DNA from: a virus
Direction: 5' to 3' (one strand)
Length of the DNA: 18,258 bases
UHGV virus genome: UHGV-0272440
Below, in pieces: positions 28 through 12,162 of the stretch; within the stretch, counting starts at the first letter, position 1; each line of letters starts with the position of its first letter. The position numbers were made by a program, and so were the translations under genes. The notes beneath the pieces were generated by a model. It searched no databases. It was not told the DNA's origin and was given only the letters and a program-made list of their open reading frames with translations.

Positions 28-103
28 TGGTGGCCCTTGCTGGATTTGAACCAGCGACCTGGCGATTATGAGTCGCTCGCTCTCACCACTGAGCTAAAGG
101 GCC
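28..103 (-). tRNA. tRNA with anticodon CAU, Ile2 (lysidine) type, resembling E. coli ileX and prophage ileZ
   Basis: Reverse complement of 28..103 is a 76-nt cloverleaf: acceptor stem GGCCCTT/AAGGGCC, D stem GCTC/GAGC, anticodon loop CTCATAA (anticodon CAT), T stem GCTGG/CCAGC with TTCAAAT loop, encoded CCA. Near-identical to my recollection of E. coli ileX. Lies downstream of Q in the late direction, where lambdoid phages carry ileZ-argN-argO. Confidence 0.88.
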
Positions 104-3572: not shown

Positions 3573-4382
3573 TCAATGAACGGTATCGAGCAGCTTTAAC
3601 AGCTCAGGGAATCGGGATTCGAAGAAATGCGGCTGCGTCTCGCGCGGATTTGCGGGACTGGTGATGTTCTTGCCGAACATGCAGCCTTTCGCCGTCAGCG
3701 ACCAGAATTTTTTGATGTTGTTAATCGCAGTGCGGCTGTATCGTTCACGTTGTTCAACGATCCCCAGCTTCGCCATCTGGTGATATGCCTGATTAGCTGT
3801 CAGGCGGATACCATACTGCTTCAGCAGTGCACTCAATGATAGCGTGGGGCGGCTTGAGCCATCAGGCGCGTCAGCAGGAGCATCAATGGCATAGCGCGGT
3901 GCCAGATTCGGTAAGCCAACAGCCTCCTGGAGTTTCTGACAGGCACCAAGCACTGAAGAGTTAGACAGGTTTAACTCCCGGCGCATAAAGTCCAGCAGGA
4001 TCACGCCAGCCTGCATCTTGTCAGCAGCCTGTCCGGATAATTTTTCCGGTGCGCTGGTTACCATATCGAAAGTACGGATCACCTTCAGATGGAATGACGG
4101 GCTGATCCACATTGCATAGGCATACACCAGTTCCTTGCAGACATACGTTCCCCGTTCATTTCCCCCATGAATCACACTCACCGGGTCAACACCCAAATTC
4201 TGGGTGTTGGTCAATTCATGAACAAGCTCAACAGTTTGTTGGCTGGAAAGAAACTTTCCCGGCTCCTTGGTTCTGGCATTTGCACCAGATGCTACTGCTG
4301 CGCGATGCAGATCGTTCAGGCTGTAACGCCCATAAGCATCACGACGAACTTCAATACCATCAATGACCATCAGATTATTCAT
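3573..4382 (-). CDS. KilA-N domain protein (antirepressor-like)
   Basis: N-terminal region 'IDGIEVRRDAYGRYSLNDLHRAAV...GTYVCKELVYAYAMWISPSFHLKVIRTF' matches the KilA-N fold family. Start set at the ATG at 4382 (AAGGAGA upstream) rather than the ATG at 4415, which overlaps rusA. Confidence 0.65.
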   Translation of the reverse strand: MNNLMVIDGIEVRRDAYGRYSLNDLHRAAVASGANARTKEPGKFLSSQQTVELVHELTNTQNLGVDPVSVIHGGNERGTYVCKELVYAYAMWISPSFHLKVIRTFDMVTSAPEKLSGQAADKMQAGVILLDFMRRELNLSNSSVLGACQKLQEAVGLPNLAPRYAIDAPADAPDGSSRPTLSLSALLKQYGIRLTANQAYHQMAKLGIVEQRERYSRTAINNIKKFWSLTAKGCMFGKNITSPANPRETQPHFFESRFPELLKLLDTVH

Positions 4383-4791: not shown

Positions 4792-5114
4792 ACTTTCAGG
4801 TCCCTCTCATGTAACCAGTGGGTTGCACGCAGCCTTGCGTTTTCCTCACCGGCAAGCAGTGCGCGGATAATCCCGACCGCCTCGCTGTCGTCGTCCTTCA
4901 CCGCGGTATGAAGCGTTATCCCCCGGGCCACGCCACGCTTTATCGTGATGACGCCTTTTTTCTCCAGTGCGCGAAGATGCTCCACCGCTGCATTCACTGA
5001 ACGGTATCCCAGCATGGTTGCCACCTCCTGATTGGTTGGCGGGAAGCCACGTTCTTTCTGATAAGAAATCAGCATATCCAGCACCTGCTGCTGGCATTGA
5101 GTTAACGTCGTCAT
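4788..5114 (-). CDS. LexA N-terminal DNA-binding-domain protein lacking the S24 peptidase domain
   Basis: 108 aa; aligns with the LexA winged-helix region: 'LTQCQQQVLDMLISYQKERGFPPTNQEVATMLGYRSVNAAVEHLRALEKKGVITIKRGVARGI' versus LexA '[63 protein letters not shown]'. No Ser/Lys catalytic domain follows. Confidence 0.7.
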   Translation of the reverse strand: MTTLTQCQQQVLDMLISYQKERGFPPTNQEVATMLGYRSVNAAVEHLRALEKKGVITIKRGVARGITLHTAVKDDDSEAVGIIRALLAGEENARLRATHWLHERDLKV

Positions 5115-7247: not shown

Positions 7248-7468
7248 GCCGCACCTCCGAGATGCTTCATGTTTTTTCCGGAGCGAAAGGCTATAAGCGG
7301 CATACTGACGCGGTAATTACGGCCCAGCGGTTCACAAATCACCTTCTGGCATTCACGGTCAACCAGGCTAACACGTAGAACATGCCCTGCAGGCGTGGTG
7401 TACCACTGACCCGGACGAGGACAACGGAAAGTATGATTGGTAAACCGTTTGAAAATATTCCGGATCAT
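7244..7468 (-). CDS. hypothetical small protein (74 aa), translationally coupled on both sides
   Basis: ATG at 7468 overlaps the upstream stop (ATGA) and its own stop overlaps the initiator ATG (ATGA). No recognisable family. Confidence 0.4.
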   Translation of the reverse strand: MIRNIFKRFTNHTFRCPRPGQWYTTPAGHVLRVSLVDRECQKVICEPLGRNYRVSMPLIAFRSGKNMKHLGGAA

Positions 7469-8616
7469 TTGCGCCCCCTTACCTCTGAAGGGTTCAGCGA
7501 CAAATTTATGAGACTGGCCAGTAGCGCCGCGTCGTTGATGCGGTCATACAGACTTACAGCCAGCGGGGATTCGGCTTTTGCCAACATGGGATAAAGCTGC
7601 TGCAGCCAGACCTGATGAATTGATGAAATGTAGGAATAGAGAACGCTGGCGTTATGTGCAACGTCGCTCGGTACAGAGGGCTTTGAAAGCTGTTTCTCCA
7701 TCTGGTTAAAGGCATTGATGTATGCCTCTTTGAACTGGGCAGCACGTTTACCCGTGAAACCCATAGCAAGAAACGCAAAACCGTCGCGTGTGATTTGGTA
7801 GCAAGGAAGTTTGCGACCTGTGCAATCAGTGTAATCACTCACCGAAAAATTGCGGGCAGTGAATGATGCTGAGCATTCAAGCGTGCGGATCTTTTTCAGT
7901 ACATCGTCATGACGTTTAGAGAAGAAGTCAGCAACAGCCAAAGAAGATGTAACAGCCTGACCATCAACGATGGCAATTTCAGGTTGAGAGATGGTTGGGA
8001 GAGTAGTCATGGTGACAGCCCCGGTAGTCAGTTTTTTAGAAAACTCACCACATGGGACGCCAATCACAGAGGTGGTGAGACGTACAGGGTTGGCGTTACC
8101 GGAGACTACCGAACCCGGCCCGACCGAAGTCGGCCCTGTACGCCACACCATAATTTGGGCGTAGCAATGCTCATGACACGAAAAAACCGCATGAGCGCGG
8201 TTATGCTCAGTAATCAATTTCAGGACGCCAATCCCGGCACCCGCTTTATAAGGTGCCTGAACAGTGTAACGTCCCGGAATGGCAGAATCAATGTGCTGGT
8301 GGTCCTTCACACTCAACAAAATCACGCCTGAATTTCCACAAAGGACTAAAGCACTCATGCGGGTAGTCTTTGCGAAGATAGATAACGCGCTGTGTTTCTG
8401 GCTCCCAACGAATAACATGAACATAAAGTCCTCTTCCGTCACGAAACCAGCGGTTAAGTTCCTGCACAACTCGCCCCCCACAGTCAGGTAAAGTTCTCTG
8501 TGGTTACTTACAGCCAGGTGATTTGGTAATCTGCATTCATGCCGTAACAACAGGTGTGCAGCGACACTGACCACCAGCTGTTGCGACAAACGGTTATTTG
8601 CCGTTAAACTGTTCAT
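7465..8616 (-). CDS. Rha-domain phage regulatory protein with an uncharacterised N-terminal region of about 200 aa
   Basis: C-terminal half ('IAIVDGQAVTSSLAVADFFSKRHDDVLKKIRTLE...YQITRDGFAFLAMGFTGKRAAQFKEAYINAFNQMEKQL') matches the Rha/phage-regulatory domain. The ATG at 8616 overlaps the upstream stop (ATGA) with GGAGA upstream. The internal ATG at 8010 is an alternative start that would give a roughly 180-aa Rha protein. Confidence 0.55.
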   Translation of the reverse strand: MNSLTANNRLSQQLVVSVAAHLLLRHECRLPNHLAVSNHRELYLTVGGELCRNLTAGFVTEEDFMFMLFVGSQKHSALSIFAKTTRMSALVLCGNSGVILLSVKDHQHIDSAIPGRYTVQAPYKAGAGIGVLKLITEHNRAHAVFSCHEHCYAQIMVWRTGPTSVGPGSVVSGNANPVRLTTSVIGVPCGEFSKKLTTGAVTMTTLPTISQPEIAIVDGQAVTSSLAVADFFSKRHDDVLKKIRTLECSASFTARNFSVSDYTDCTGRKLPCYQITRDGFAFLAMGFTGKRAAQFKEAYINAFNQMEKQLSKPSVPSDVAHNASVLYSYISSIHQVWLQQLYPMLAKAESPLAVSLYDRINDAALLASLINLSLNPSEVRGRK

Positions 8617-9164
8617 GCGTTAGTTTCTCCACAGACACAAAACGCCACGACGCCCGGAGCTGCACACTCGCGGGCGTCACTCTTTTCTGGAGCGCAGAAA
8701 ATTTTGTAGACCAGTGCCGCATGCTCCTGGAGCTTCGAAATTGACAGATACAATTCATCATTAATTGCTGTCTGCTCGTGTGGCTCCACTACCCCATCTT
8801 CGATTGCCGAACGAATCTGCTTTGAGTAACTCCCGATCTGTTCGATGACTTCCAGCAGGCGCTGGTTTATATCTGCGTTCTCTACTTCCTCAATTTCAGG
8901 AAGCGATACAAACACCCCACCAGCAGACTGTGCGACAGCATCCGCAATGTAGTGAGTGCCAGCAGCACGCTGTAAAATCATTGCCCATCCCAGCGGGAAA
9001 ATCTGATCGCCATCTGCACGAAGGCGGTTGAATAAAGCGTTCTCTGTAACATCCAGCCACTCAGCAGCTTCAGCGTAACCCCCTGGCAACGCCGCGATGG
9101 TTTTTCTGACAGCTTTCACGTACCACTCAGGCTGTTTTTCCACTTTCCAGTGATGATTACCCAC
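8613..9164 (-). CDS. Putative CII-like/YdaT-family regulatory protein
   Basis: 183-aa ORF immediately downstream of cro. GTG start with strong AGGAGG Shine-Dalgarno 6 nt upstream. Family assignment is from position and recollection of YdaT-like proteins following cro-like genes; not verified. Confidence 0.4.
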   Translation of the reverse strand: MGNHHWKVEKQPEWYVKAVRKTIAALPGGYAEAAEWLDVTENALFNRLRADGDQIFPLGWAMILQRAAGTHYIADAVAQSAGGVFVSLPEIEEVENADINQRLLEVIEQIGSYSKQIRSAIEDGVVEPHEQTAINDELYLSISKLQEHAALVYKIFCAPEKSDARECAAPGVVAFCVCGETNA

Positions 9165-9417
9165 GGCTTACCTCCTGTTCCTGTGGTTTAAACCCATTCT
9201 GGTTTTGGCTAGATTGAAAACGTGCCGGATAAAGAATCTGCATTTCGCTGATTTCACCCTTAAAAAAATTGGCCAGACGTTCTGCAAGATCGATAGATGG
9301 AATTTGTTCCAGTCTTTCAATACGACTCAGCGTCGCTGGATTGACCTGAACGCCAGCAGCAACATGCTGCAAAGTAAATCCGTGCGCCTTACGCACATTC
9401 CGTAATGGTGATTGCAT
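9157..9417 (-). CDS. Cro-like helix-turn-helix transcriptional regulator
   Basis: 86 aa; XRE-type HTH 'FTLQHVAAGVQVNPATLSRIERLEQIPSIDLAERLANFF'; GGAGGT Shine-Dalgarno; divergent from the repressor gene. Confidence 0.7.
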   Translation of the reverse strand: MQSPLRNVRKAHGFTLQHVAAGVQVNPATLSRIERLEQIPSIDLAERLANFFKGEISEMQILYPARFQSSQNQNGFKPQEQEVSRG

Positions 9418-9514
9418 ATAACCTCCACATATTGCGTGATGAGCATATTATTTCACGCAAATATTTTGCGCAAGTTGATTTGCTTAACGCGCAATAAAGA
9501 AATGTAATAAACGC
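9418..9514. promoter_or_regulatory. Divergent immunity promoter/operator region (OR-like)
   Basis: Inverted repeat TTGCGTGA...TCACGCAA (9435..9463), self-complementary TTGCGCAA (9469..9476) and GCGCAA (9492..9497). Candidate cro promoter on the minus strand: TTGCGC (-35, 9471..9476) - 17 bp - TAATAT (-10, 9448..9453), overlapping these repeats. Confidence 0.5.
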
Positions 9515-10207
9515 ATGAACATAGGAAACCGAGTCAGACAACTTCGCCAGGCGAAGAACATGAAAATCGCCGATCTCGCTGAAGCAATAGGAGTGGATGC
9601 GGCGAATATCTCACGCCTGGAAACAGGTAAGCAGAAACAATTCACTGAACAAGCCCTGAGTAATATTGCCAAGAGCTTAGGTGTTGATATTGCTGATCTC
9701 TTTACCTCAGACTTCAAAAGTAATACTGTATGTAAAAACAGTATTAGTGAGGATGTTGCGCAGGTGAAGGATGTATTCCGTATTGAAATGCTGGATGTCA
9801 GTGCCAGTGCGGGAAATGGCCTTATCCAGGGCGGTGATGTCATTGATGTGATTCATGCCATTGAATACAGAACTGATAATGCTGTATCGATGTTTGGTGG
9901 ACGGCCAGCCAATCACATTAAAGTTATCAACGTTCGTGGGGACAGTATGTGTCCAACCATTGAGCCAGGAGATCTCATCTTCGTTGATGTCAGTATCAAT
10001 CAGTTTGATGGAGATGGTATCTATGTATTTGGTTTTGATGATAAAATTTATGTCAAACGACTGCAAATGATACCTGACAAACTACTGGTGATTTCTGATA
10101 ACCAGATTTACCGTGAATGGGGAATTACCAGCGAAAATGAACACCGGTTTATGGTCTTTGGAAAGGTCTTAATCAGCCAGTCACAAACCATTAAGCGACA
10201 CAATTAA
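9515..10207 (+). CDS. CI-type prophage repressor (HTH plus S24 LexA-like autopeptidase domain)
   Basis: 230 aa; N-terminal HTH 'MKIADLAEAIGVDAANISRLETGK'; C-terminal S24 motifs 'VRGDSMCPTIEPGDLIFVD' (Ser nucleophile) and 'YVKRL' (Lys). Confidence 0.85.
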   Translation: MNIGNRVRQLRQAKNMKIADLAEAIGVDAANISRLETGKQKQFTEQALSNIAKSLGVDIADLFTSDFKSNTVCKNSISEDVAQVKDVFRIEMLDVSASAGNGLIQGGDVIDVIHAIEYRTDNAVSMFGGRPANHIKVINVRGDSMCPTIEPGDLIFVDVSINQFDGDGIYVFGFDDKIYVKRLQMIPDKLLVISDNQIYREWGITSENEHRFMVFGKVLISQSQTIKRHN

Positions 10208-10227
10208 CCCTTACCTCCTCATCAATT

Positions 10228-10249
10228 AGCCACCCAAAGGTGGCTTTTC
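10228..10249 (+). terminator. Rho-independent terminator after the repressor gene
   Basis: Stem AGCCACC (10228..10234), loop CAAA, stem GGTGGCT (10239..10245), then TTTT (10246..10249). Confidence 0.65.
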
Positions 10250-10259
10250 ATTACCCTTT

Positions 10260-10301
10260 AAATTGCATATCTCGCAACAAAAACACTTGCATAATGCGCA
10301 A
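10260..10301 (+). promoter_or_regulatory. Candidate early-left promoter/operator (pL/OL-like)
   Basis: Two 15-bp units of form TTGCA-N5-CGCAA ('TTGCATATCTCGCAA' 10263..10277; 'TTGCATAATGCGCAA' 10287..10301) sharing the CGCAA half-site with the OR repeats; -10-like CATAAT at 10290..10295. The promoter assignment is an inference. Confidence 0.35.
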
Positions 10302-10715
10302 CTTCATTTTATCTTTCTTTCCAGACAAACAAACAAGGTACTAACAAAATTTGGTTGTAACACGGCGTATGGCACATGCGTCGTTAGCGGTCTGGGGACG
10401 TTAAAGGGGACAATCCACTCCTTGCTCGGGCAAACAAACCAGGTAGCCGGAATGTGCAAGTCAATGATGATGCTGATAAGACGCCTAACCAGCGTGGCGA
10501 TTCGGTTTGACGCCTGGGAAGAGACCAGGGTGCAACGATGAGGGCATTTATGGAGCCGCGACAAAGTGTGGTGCCGTAACTGGCTAAGTGCTCTCAGCGT
10601 TGTGGTAATCCGCGAAATGGCGCGGCGGTAAGTATGGCGGGGTTACTCTTTCCCCGTTGAGGACACCGGATTGTCAGGTTGACCATACGCCTGAGTGACA
10701 ACCCCACCACAACAG

Positions 10716-10772
10716 CCACTGCTTTGGCGGTACCAGTTTGTACCCTTGCTTCCGGCTGGTACCGCTCTTTTT
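10716..10772 (+). ncRNA. DicF-like small RNA ending in an intrinsic terminator
   Basis: 'CTTTGGCGGTACCAGTTTGTACCC' closely parallels the 5'/seed region of E. coli DicF as I recall it ('GTTTGGCGGTATCAGTTTTACTCC'). Followed by a perfect 10-bp hairpin GCGGTACCAG (10727..10736) / CTGGTACCGC (10756..10765) and TCTTTTT. The 5' boundary is approximate. Confidence 0.5.
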
Positions 10773-10778
10773 ACAAAA

Positions 10779-10859
10779 CAGAGAAGAGCATCACCGGACG
10801 ACGGGCTCATAACCCAATCCATCCGGGCGGCAGCCACCGCAGGTGTTCTTCTCTGTTTT
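10779..10859 (+). terminator. Second large hairpin followed by a U-run (terminator/attenuator-like) in the early-left leader
   Basis: 12-bp stem CAGAGAAGAGCA (10779..10790) / TGTTCTTCTCTG (10844..10855, one G-U pair) enclosing a structured 53-nt loop, followed by TTTTGT. Confidence 0.4.
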
Positions 10860-10909
10860 GTGGAGAAACTAATCGGCCTTGCAGGGTCGATATGATGAGG
10901 AGCAGCAAA

Positions 10910-11272
10910 ATGGCTAGCGAACGCAGTACTGATGTGCAGGCATTTATCGGGGAGCTGGACGGCGGCGTATTTGAAACCAAAATCGGCGCAGTTCTCAGTG
11001 AAGTCGCTTCCGGTGTGATGAACACGAAAACCAAAGGTAAGGTCTCACTCAACCTGGAAATCGAACCATTTGATGAGAACCGTGTGAAAATCAAACACAA
11101 ACTCTCATATGTTCGCCCGACTAACCGCGGGAAAATTTCTGAAGAAGACACCACCGAAACACCGATGTATGTCAATCGCGGTGGTCGCCTGACTATTCTG
11201 CAGGAAGACCAGGGACAATTACTGACTCTTGCCGGTGAACCTGACGGAAAACTCCGCGCAGCAGGTCATTAA
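10910..11272 (+). CDS. hypothetical early-left protein (YfdP-like by size and position)
   Basis: 121-aa ORF from the ATG at 10910 with GAGGAG Shine-Dalgarno 8 nt upstream. The ORF-track start at 10679 would run through the terminator hairpins and is rejected. Confidence 0.55.
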   Translation: MASERSTDVQAFIGELDGGVFETKIGAVLSEVASGVMNTKTKGKVSLNLEIEPFDENRVKIKHKLSYVRPTNRGKISEEDTTETPMYVNRGGRLTILQEDQGQLLTLAGEPDGKLRAAGH

Positions 11273-11337: not shown

Positions 11338-12162
11338 ATGTCTCAGAACTTAGACGCAACCGCAATTAATCAAATCCATGCTCTTATTTCTGCTCAGGAT
11401 GTTAATGAAATTATCAGTAAGATTGGTGCCGATGCTGTGGCATTGCCTGAGAATTTCCGCATTCATGATCTGGAAAAATTTAATTTAAATCGCTTCCGTT
11501 TCCGTGGTGCGCTTTCCACTGCCAGCATTGATGACTTTACCCGTTATTCTAAAGATCTTGCAGATGAAGGCACCCGCTGCTTTATCGATGCCGATAATAT
11601 GCGAGCCATCAGTGTGCTTAACCTGGGTACTATTGATGAACCAGGTCACGCAGATAACACCGCCACTCTCAAACTGAAAAAGACAGCACCGTTCTCTGCC
11701 CTGTTGTCTGTTAACGGCGAGCGTAACTCCCAGAAGTCACTAGCAGAATGGATTGAAGACTGGGCCGACTACCTTGTGGGCTTTGATGCTAATGGTGACG
11801 CCATTCAGGCAACCAAAGCGGCTGCGGCGATCCGTAAAATCACAATTGAAGCGAACCAGACCGCTGATTTTGAAGATAATGACTTCAGCGGCAAACGCTC
11901 CCTGATGGAGTCTGTCGAAGCGAAGACCAAAGACATTATGCCAGTGGCATTTGAATTTAAATGCGTTCCGTTTGAAGGTCTGAAAGAACGTCCGTTTAAA
12001 TTACGCCTCAGCATTATCACTGGCGATCGTCCTGTACTGGTTCTGCGCATTATTCAGCTGGAAGCGGTGCAGGAAGAAATGGCTAACGAATTTCGTGATC
12101 TGCTTGTTGAGAAATTCAAAGACAGCAAAGTAGAAACCTTTATTGGTACTTTCACCGCCTGA
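11338..12162 (+). CDS. yfdQ: DUF2303/YfdQ-like protein
   Basis: 274-aa ORF with GTGAGGA Shine-Dalgarno. Length and N-terminus match my recollection of E. coli CPS-53 YfdQ; memory-based, no search run. Confidence 0.5.

Follow-up and report, generated by a model that had tools for sequence, protein, structure and literature searches.

The DicF small RNA (sRNA) locus of the Qin prophage in Escherichia coli K-12 gives rise to several RNA species: a 190-nt form whose 5′ end depends on RNase III, a 53-nt form whose 5′ end depends on RNase E, and a 72-nt form whose 3′ end is made by RNase III (10.1101/2023.04.14.536235; PMC5069750). In lambdoid phages devoid of N, structured RNAs of another type, the put RNAs of HK022, lie just downstream of the early promoter and upstream of terminators (PMC9378689). 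Here we analyzed an 18,258-nt stretch of the virus genome UHGV-0272440 (hereafter ‘the window’), which is the central portion of a lambdoid prophage (SfV/SfII/mEp460 type) of E. coli, and focused on positions 10250–10909, which separate the repressor gene with its terminator from the first early-left gene. The interval holds a series of RNA cassettes—module A, hairpin X1, module B, a DicF-family sRNA with an apparent intrinsic terminator, and hairpin C2—and is most likely the untranslated 5′ part of a repressor-controlled early-left (pL-type) transcript rather than a passive leader. Judged from sequence and by analogy to Qin, we hold with fair confidence that it acts as a polycistronic precursor of noncoding RNAs (ncRNAs), which RNase III and RNase E would process and in which the sRNA terminator would serve as a partial stop before the early-left genes.

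The only open reading frames (ORFs) listed across 10250–10909 were mechanical ones with TTG or GTG starts, in line with the original prediction, made from the letters alone, of a protein-free interval between the repressor terminator and the first early-left gene. In relatives, the core of module A measures 160–192 nt, with lengths falling into all residue classes modulo 3 and no open frame retained, and paired columns carry compensatory changes with G-U wobbles on the plus strand. The interval is therefore noncoding and read as RNA from the plus strand. That it is highly structured likewise held: the 611-nt leader folds to a minimum free energy of −235 kcal/mol, as compared to −201 ± 6 in shuffled sequences (z = −5.5). 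The word ‘leader’ thus captured a structured, noncoding region, yet missed a mosaic of autonomous RNA cassettes and a DicF locus. The structures of A, B, and C2 are conserved and covarying, with covariation for the consensus fold of B being modest (alignment A4).

Module B (10599–10721, plus strand), closed by GUUGUGG at 10599–10605 and CCACAAC at 10707–10713, provides the connection to DicF. It is identical to K-12 Qin at 110 of 123 nt (89.4%) without a gap, and the matching Qin stretch ends 9 nt before dicF. By sequence, module B corresponds to the body of the 190-nt DicF precursor, and the 190-nt species is B plus DicF. This ungapped homology supports the suggestion that RNA processing releases the small RNA. 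As in Qin, the small RNA locus is situated downstream of a cI-like repressor and operators and is preceded by a precursor-type upstream domain. A second scan of IMG/VR returned 96 unique B-containing units. In every representative, B is followed within ~20–60 nt by a GGCGG...CCGCC hairpin and a U-tract, with widely different loops, while changes in the closing stem of B are exclusively pairing-compatible (CCACAAC, GCUGCAAC, GCUACAAC, GUCACAAC).

The corresponding hairpin of the window belongs to the DicF-family sRNA (10722–10772, plus strand). A perfect 10-bp stem, GCGGTACCAG/CTGGTACCGC (10727–10736 / 10756–10765), encloses a 19-nt loop that varies among relatives and is followed by TCTTTTT, with the U-tract at 10766–10772. 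The first of two hairpin-plus-U-run elements that had been proposed upstream of the first gene, at 10727–10772, was thus placed exactly, and it looks like a genuine intrinsic terminator. Its GGCGG...CCGCC-UUUUU scaffold is common to all B-associated variants and K-12 DicF. As a separate observation, module B contains an invariant GGCGCGGCGGUAAG (10614–10628) that resembles the 5′ strand of every associated terminator (GGCGGUA..., 10726–10736 in the window) and could pair with the terminator 3′ strand UACCGCC/U (10756–10766), a possible antiterminator-type alternative.

When the Qin locus was folded, the mapped RNase III 5′ end of the 190-nt species (GUGCGC^UUCCGGUUGUGG) fell on the 3′ side of a long hairpin that terminates in GUUGUGG, and the 3′ end of the 72-nt form fell in the long hairpin between dicF and dicB, with the U-tract being part of its base. 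By analogy, the two long hairpins of the present phage, X1 and C2, which occupy the positions of the Qin RNase III sites, would be processing hairpins.

Module A (10348–10535, plus strand) is a pseudoknotted RNA of ~175 nt. It comprises P1 (10363–10383, loop GGCAC), P2a (10388–10390 with 10447–10449), P2b (10391–10395 with 10439–10443), a junction stem of three pairs showing no double-sided changes (10460–10462 with 10496–10498), P4 (10481–10495, loop CUAACCA), P5 (10513–10529, loop GAAGAGA), and a pseudoknot connecting the P4 loop to a downstream GGUG/GGUU (10487–10490 with 10504–10507). An invariant complementary pair, GCAC in the P1 loop and GUGC (10372–10375 with 10454–10457), may form a second pseudoknot or a conformational switch.

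Homologues of module A were collected by an IMG/VR scan with an invariant 19-mer and by profile searches, yielding 101 unique versions. In a 45-sequence alignment, 96.8% of cells were paired as compared to 28–44% when partners were slid by 1–3 columns, 14 pairs had changed on both sides, and the covariation score amounted to 0.255 versus 0.120; none of 500 shuffles reached the observed values for any of paired percentage, double-sided changes, or covariation score. The pseudoknot pair switches from C:G to A:U in five sequences. Position 36:105 of P2a appears as G:C, A:U, and C:G in a manual alignment with divergent copies, from which the register of this helix (columns 35–37 with 104–106) was set; the automated count (A7) gave G:C, A:U, and G:U only, MAFFT having misaligned two copies. 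We rejected an RNAalifold alternative (GCACAU with AUGUGC, lacking the P1 hairpin) as the main fold, given that pair 14:26 covaries perfectly. An all-against-all column covariation was swamped by phylogenetic signal and proved useful only for pairs of the proposed helices and the pseudoknot pair 159:179. An earlier contig scan with a 15-mer returned mostly chance matches, with five true module A loci (L012, L053, L093, L099, L125) among the 120 listed.

Profile searches also recovered divergent copies without the invariant 19-mer (L412 3912–4073, L431 7288–7448, L435 1554–1705, L443 4581–4741). These have GGUAGCCGG swapped for GGACAACUGG or GGAAUUCCGGAAG and retain the P1 loop, AAUGUGCAAGC, the CACC/GGUG pseudoknot, and the GGAAGAG loop. 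They show the module A family to be wider than seed-based sampling captures. One viral contig (L147) harbors two copies on the same strand, at 3994–4160 and 4802–4962, ~800 nt apart.

The stretch 10349–10600, spanning A and most of X1, matches 1834 of 5426 complete E. coli genomes (~34%), and no annotated feature is present at any listed match. Module A also occurs in P1 and P7, where it is unannotated, 11 nt after tRNA-Ile2(CAU) and ~100 nt before ban; in mEp390 after the repressor; and in epsilon15-like phages (phiV10, TL-2011b, SPN1S, PAT1, and a Klebsiella phage) just upstream of tRNA-Arg(UCU). In phiV10 (L005 2883–3402) and SPN1S (L006 ~1380–1990), the A unit is flanked by the terminase and portal genes and runs on the opposite strand. 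In phiV10, it consists in turn of TTGACA-17-TACCTT, module A, X1, tRNA-Arg(UCU), and a DicF-scaffold terminator hairpin (GGCGGUGAUGG...CACCGCC-CUUUUU), and TTGACA-17-TACCTT is common to phiV10 and SPN1S although the spacer differs. The epsilon15-like unit reads as a stand-alone transcription unit composed of ncRNAs only, with a putative promoter recognized from its sequence. The place of A as the first gene of this unit is the strongest argument for regarding it as the product of an RNA gene rather than as just a cis element within the pL mRNA.

Hairpin C2 (also X2; 10773–10861, plus strand) is a long hairpin with 25-nt arms and a three-way-junction cap. The original prediction had a second hairpin-plus-U-run element at 10779–10859. 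The hairpin was placed exactly, but the U-run UGUUUUGU is the 3′ strand of its own stem and not a tail; the element is therefore not a canonical terminator. The first arm of the cap (10802–10815, in a region carrying ACGGGCUCAUAACCCAAUCC) reads CGGGCUCAUAACCC (also written CGGGCTCATAACCC), and the second (10827–10840) is a small covarying hairpin, GCGG-CAGCCA-CCGC. In an alignment with metZ, the 14-mer CGGGCUCAUAACCC equals the anticodon stem-loop of initiator tRNA-fMet from E. coli, with the three G-C pairs and the CUCAUAA loop both present. CUCAU is invariant in an unbiased homologue set and across more than 100 related phage loci. Neither ARAGORN nor Rfam called a tRNA in the leader, and the anticodon-arm 14-mer is all that C2 and metZ have in common.

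The 25-bp stem of C2 covaries, for example from ACAAAACAGAG/CUCUGUUUUGU to ACGCAACACAC/GUGUGUUGUGU, and in an alignment of 10766–10900 from 15 sequences (A6), 10 of 39 predicted pairs had changed on both sides. RNAalifold extends the stem by pairing the terminator U-tract with an invariant GGAGA (columns 3–7 with 124–128). This GGAGA is part of the C2 tail (10861–10889, plus strand), in which an invariant UGGAGAAACUAA precedes a small hairpin at 10874–10889 that covaries as well (columns 151–154 with 159–162). A third scan detected more than 120 C2 loci in 107 unique contexts. C2 nearly always follows a DicF-scaffold terminator and is itself followed by UGGAGAAACUAAC, the small covarying hairpin, and the ribosome-binding site (RBS) of diverse first genes; some loci have short outer stems of other sequence around the same junction.

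X1 (10533–10602, plus strand), between A and the next cassette, consists of a 14-bp base stem, CAACGAUGAGGGCA/UGCUCUCAGCGUUG, with a variable top. It is kept in phiV10, where its 3′ end abuts tRNA-Arg, and there are compensatory changes between the window and phiV10 (alignment A1). By analogy to Qin, it is a putative RNase III site.

Short complementary strings punctuate these cassettes. Upstream of C2, other loci show chains of the type ...CACAAC [long hairpin] GUUGUGG [module] CCACAAC [long hairpin] GUUGUGG..., and GUUGUGG/CCACAAC and compensated variants alternate along leaders, closing modules or the intervening long hairpins (also in L374, L378, L389, and L431). Among 77 unique 600-nt leader segments, GTTGTG was found 77 times versus 10.6 expected and CACAAC 46 times versus 11.4 expected (4- to 7-fold), counts that show enrichment and not a probability, as the segments share common descent. 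Along the window, the series runs GGUUGUAAC (10352–10360), A, UGCAAC (10537–10542)/CAACG, X1, CGUUG, and then GUUGUGG (10599–10605), B, CCACAAC (10707–10713), the sRNA, ACAAAAC (10773–10779), C2, and GUUUUGUGG (10854–10863). Divergent A copies are flanked by CAGUUGUGAAC and ACACAAC, and tRNA-Arg of phiV10 begins directly after CGUUGUG. Neighboring closing stems share strands (UGCAAC/CAACG, CGUUG/GUUGUGG), and adjacent stems are therefore mutually exclusive, to which one may speculatively ascribe regulatory meaning. The punctuation stems may have a double role, as stems for RNase III and as linkers through which modules are exchanged by recombination.

The cassettes also shuffle independently. 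A was present upstream in 5 and B in 2 of 82 loci selected for C2; among 94 loci selected for B, none had A and two had C2. BLAST against phage genomes found sub-segments of the leader recurring separately in unrelated phages. The order A-X1-B-sRNA-C2 of the window is one combination among many.

Upstream of the cassettes, the operator-like repeats proposed at 10263–10301 were borne out as two 16-mers of the form TTGC-N7-GCAA, TTGCATATCTCGCAAC (10263–10278) and TTGCATAATGCGCAAC (10287–10302), 24 bp apart, with a third copy in the cI-cro interval (9480–9495). The repressor presumably binds these 16-mers. A candidate pL-type promoter on the plus strand (10287–10322) overlaps the second copy, with a −35 element TTGCAT (10287–10292), a 17-nt spacer, and a −10 element TATCTT (10310–10315), which would place the transcription start near 10322. 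Homology to phages of other immunity (cdtI, Ayreon, 2H10, and Stx2c phages) starts at ~10334–10343 (BLAST, phage genomes); the promoter is therefore upstream of that point.

Together, these features suggest the following course. Upon derepression, transcription would start near 10322 and proceed through module A, X1, module B, and the DicF-family sRNA with its own terminator (10727–10772), where most transcripts would end to give a primary RNA of ~450 nt. RNase III would cut in X1 and, after read-through, in C2, while RNase E would cut upstream of the sRNA, as in Qin dicBF. The predicted products are a stable A RNA, a B+sRNA species of ~175 nt, and an Hfq-type sRNA of ~50 nt. Read-through of the terminator, for which passive, partial leakage carrying polymerase to yfdP is the simplest assumption, would lead to transcription of C2 and the yfdP-yfdQ... 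genes. The terminator would thereby set the ratio of ncRNA to mRNA, and a cut in the C2 stem, of which the U-tract is part, would detach the sRNA from the mRNA. In this scheme, we infer the promoter and start, the cleavage sites in this phage, the leakiness of the terminator, trans functions of A, B, and C2, and targets of the sRNA.

Several points weigh against such a precursor. The Rfam DicF model (RF00039) found no match in 10150–11000, even at E ≤ 10; as a control, it scored K-12 DicF at 76.7 bits and gave no match for P1 and six other B-associated variants, missing every scanned variant but K-12 DicF. The sRNA of the window keeps CAGUUU but has lost CUCCG of the ftsZ pairing, a pairing that was deduced by inspection and not taken from papers. 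RNAduplex energies with ftsZ compared to shuffles gave p = 0.44 for the window sRNA and p = 0.11 for authentic DicF, in a low-power test over long windows. No transcripts past dicF were detected in the Qin study (10.1101/2023.04.14.536235). The candidate pL promoter is weak by consensus and absent from the consensus scan output. The candidate GCAC/GUGC pseudoknot of module A is invariant, so covariation cannot support that pairing, and the homologue sets derive from exact-match seeds, which limits diversity and, for B, covariation power. Finally, the strong structures of A, B, and C2 would be just as compatible with roles in cis only.

The last point leads to an explanation to which we grant a small but real chance: a cis-protective leader that shields the RNA from Rho loading or 5′ decay and/or tunes translation of the first gene, with the DicF-like sRNA as the sole trans actor. 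The 588-nt untranslated leader is G-rich and not C-rich (28.7% G, 24.5% C) and, being structured, should be a poor Rho substrate, and C2 and the small hairpin immediately precede the RBS of many different first genes, both of which fit a protective or tuning role. Shielding, however, requires neither invariant loops and junctions nor pseudoknots nor conservation across P1, lambdoid, and epsilon15-like phages, and A also occurs beside tRNAs with a conserved putative promoter of its own, recognized from sequence, and with no mRNA to protect.

A slightly smaller chance attaches to processive antitermination in cis, whereby A and/or B would fold on the nascent transcript, bind RNA polymerase, and enable it to pass the DicF-like and later terminators in place of the missing N, as the put RNAs do in HK022 through the zinc-binding domain of the polymerase beta-prime subunit. 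The original prediction had noted the absence of an N-like antiterminator gene, and indeed none was recognized by Pfam N-type families in 20 flanking ORFs, albeit a weak negative given that N proteins are small and divergent. Nor was lambda-type N/nut antitermination supported: the first pL gene is YfdP-like instead of N, and there is no conserved boxA. A boxA-like string, CGCUCUUUUUACAA at 10763–10776, turned out to be the terminator tail, which in relatives reads CGCCCUUUUUAC or CGCAUUUUUUUAC and is thus unconserved. Besides the lack of N, antitermination would accord with the position of B, followed in the window, Qin, and P1 by an intrinsic terminator that polymerase has to cross on its way to downstream genes, and with the invariant single-stranded motifs of A, which suggest a specific macromolecular partner. 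Against this, nhmmer and blastn searches of A, B, and the whole leader against the nun-cI-cro-cII region of HK022, and thus putL/putR, returned chance matches only. The 18-kb window has no second copy of A, X1, B, or C2, and none was found on the pR side at E ≤ 10, unlike the putL/putR pair; the pR side bears C4 and isrK RNAs instead. With 115–175 nt and multiple helices, A and B differ from two-stem elements of ~70 nt. A, B, and the terminator sRNA occur independently, and the epsilon15-like ncRNA unit headed by A is short and closes with a terminator, with no long operon that would need antitermination. Moreover, every B-associated unit ends in an sRNA-yielding terminator, the opposite of suppression. 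The put-like mechanism that had been raised for this leader is hence disfavored relative to the processed precursor.

We find it very improbable that the operon is transcribed from a promoter of its own directly before the first gene, with the upstream hairpins being an unrelated sRNA gene plus decoration. yfdP can exist leaderless, since that of K-12 CPS-53 has just the last 30 nt of the leader. The promoter scan, however, revealed no sigma-70-like site in 10773–10909; the interval, with 10862–10909 in particular, is conserved as covarying RNA structure instead; and pairing of the C2 stem with the terminator U-tract ties C2 physically to the upstream transcript. The downstream promoter that the original prediction had offered as an option thus received no support, and the upstream hairpins, whose absence from relatives would have spoken for it, are kept there. 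In CPS-53 (L252 7586–7615), the rest of the leader is absent and the upstream sequence is unrelated and repeat-rich (TTTTGACGGGTCAGA-type repeats).

Hidden small-protein genes, such as those on the opposite strand in mEp460 and F1055, or DNA-level sites such as recombination linkers, are just as improbable: although GenBank records place hypothetical proteins over these sequences and the GTTGTGG/CCACAAC boundary repeats could promote module exchange through recombination, length differences span all modulo-3 classes with open frames lost, substitutions are compensatory within helices with G-U wobbles possible on plus-strand RNA only, and boundary recombination fits the RNA model and so is no true alternative. 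The opposite-strand hypotheticals overlie modules A, B, and C2 (mEp460_037/mEp460_036, L001 3106–3474 and 3516–3659; F1055_0036/F1055_0037, L003 2535–3368) and, because of covariation and frame-breaking indels, are probably spurious calls.

Returning to the ncRNA precursor, part of the leader is of a known type, namely a variant of a DicF precursor locus, in which at least two widespread, covariation-supported folds absent from Rfam 15, A and C2, are embedded. No match to modules A, B, X1, or C2 reached the gathering score of Rfam 15 in the window and 12 related loci, and hits at E ≤ 10 were chance only. The invariant strings of module A did not occur in the searchable literature, literature searches retrieved no description of the cassette architecture, and nothing relevant was found on the P1 ban leader or on ncRNAs of epsilon15/phiV10. 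HnrS (PMC13502914) is unrelated and located in late genes. More tentatively, lambdoid, P1-like, and epsilon15-like phages might share a set of mobile, induction-expressed ncRNA cassettes delimited by processing stems, with A being a new functional RNA and C2 a mimic of tRNA-fMet, a proposal we regard as possible but doubtful. Under that proposal, A could be a pseudoknotted protein-binding RNA or ribozyme that travels with tRNAs, while C2 could act on the translation-initiation or tRNA-targeting machinery of the host, be it as a decoy for VapC-type tRNA-fMet anticodon nucleases or as a ligand of the 30S P site, IF3, or MetRS.

The genes around the interval conform to the lambdoid layout. The S24/HTH repressor gene (9515–10207, plus strand) is followed by its intrinsic terminator, AGCCACC-CAAA-GGTGGCT plus TTTT (10228–10245 in the terminator scan, or to 10249 including TTTT; plus strand). 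The first early-left gene (10897–11272, plus strand) has a Shine-Dalgarno sequence GAGGAG at 10897–10902 and its ATG at 10910, not 10911, and encodes a YfdP-like protein of 120 aa without a Pfam match; next come a yfdQ-like DUF2303 gene (11338–12162, plus strand) and, further downstream on the plus strand, a YfbR-like gene, Ea22, DUF551, and an exoribonuclease. The minus strand carries cro (9157–9417); a CII/CP76 homologue, a Rha/Ash antirepressor, and replication and nin-type genes; Q (1810–2562); and a DNA methylase gene (153–1202). Downstream of the DNA methylase and the Q antiterminator lies the only tRNA of the window according to ARAGORN and Rfam, a phage-borne tRNA-Met(CAU) (28–103, minus strand), whose anticodon arm GCGACUCAUAAUCGC is not of the initiator type. 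Rfam further identified a C4 antisense RNA (8068–8155, minus strand; 77.7 bits) and an isrK RNA (8180–8256, minus strand; 59.3 bits), both within a mechanical 383-aa ORF (7465–8616, minus strand) bearing Ash and Rha domains. The ensemble has the look of an antirepressor control module of the P1 immI kind, situated in the pR operon, and the C4 and isrK pair is also found in mEp460 and several related loci.

What had been an ‘empty’ 660-bp gap, unannotated in public records or covered by doubtful opposite-strand ORFs, becomes a defined set of RNA genes. DicF, a regulator of cell division, seems to belong to a far larger family with a constant upstream domain and terminator scaffold and a hypervariable loop, suggesting a fixed chassis on which prophages vary the sRNAs that they aim at the host. 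Module A has a covariation-supported complexity typical of riboswitches and ribozymes, and the copy of the initiator tRNA anticodon arm in C2 is a lead to a new phage–host interaction in either tRNA cleavage or the initiation of translation. The punctuation between cassettes supplies a mechanism both for RNA processing and for mosaic exchange of noncoding modules, and the case as a whole provides a handle on early-left gene expression across an intrinsic terminator in N-less lambdoid phages.

With respect to described systems, Qin dicBF shares the greatest part of this layout: a repressor gene, a controlled promoter, structured RNA, an sRNA with an intrinsic terminator, a long hairpin, and protein genes. 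The two differ in the sRNA body, in the ydfABC ORFs, which are absent here, and in the downstream genes, which are of the yfdP/yfdQ type instead of dicB; conversely, Qin has neither module A nor the three-way junction of C2. In P1, B and the terminator sRNA likewise come directly after a repressor-controlled promoter, the C1-controlled Pban, within and next to an annotated ‘dicF-like region’. The order of the ban operon is Pban, ‘dicF-like region’, tRNA-Asn, tRNA-Thr, tciABC, tRNA-Ile, and ban, with A after tRNA-Ile, an arrangement in which structured RNAs and tRNAs alternate under repressor control. P1 differs in that the order of A and B is reversed and 2.3 kb, occupied by tRNAs and protein genes, separate the two, in that C2 is absent, and in that the ‘dicF-like region’ is the only annotation, A being unannotated.

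The put RNAs of HK022, at ~70 nt with two stems and as a pL/pR pair, contrast with modules that are larger, single, and also present outside of long operons. mRNA operators that mimic tRNAs are another known type, as exemplified by the thrS leader, which mimics the anticodon arm of tRNA-Thr. C2 resembles them in that its hairpin reproduces 14 nt of the tRNA-fMet anticodon stem-loop ~95 nt before a start codon, and departs from them in that the mimic resides within the three-way junction of a probable processing hairpin and precedes many unrelated first genes.

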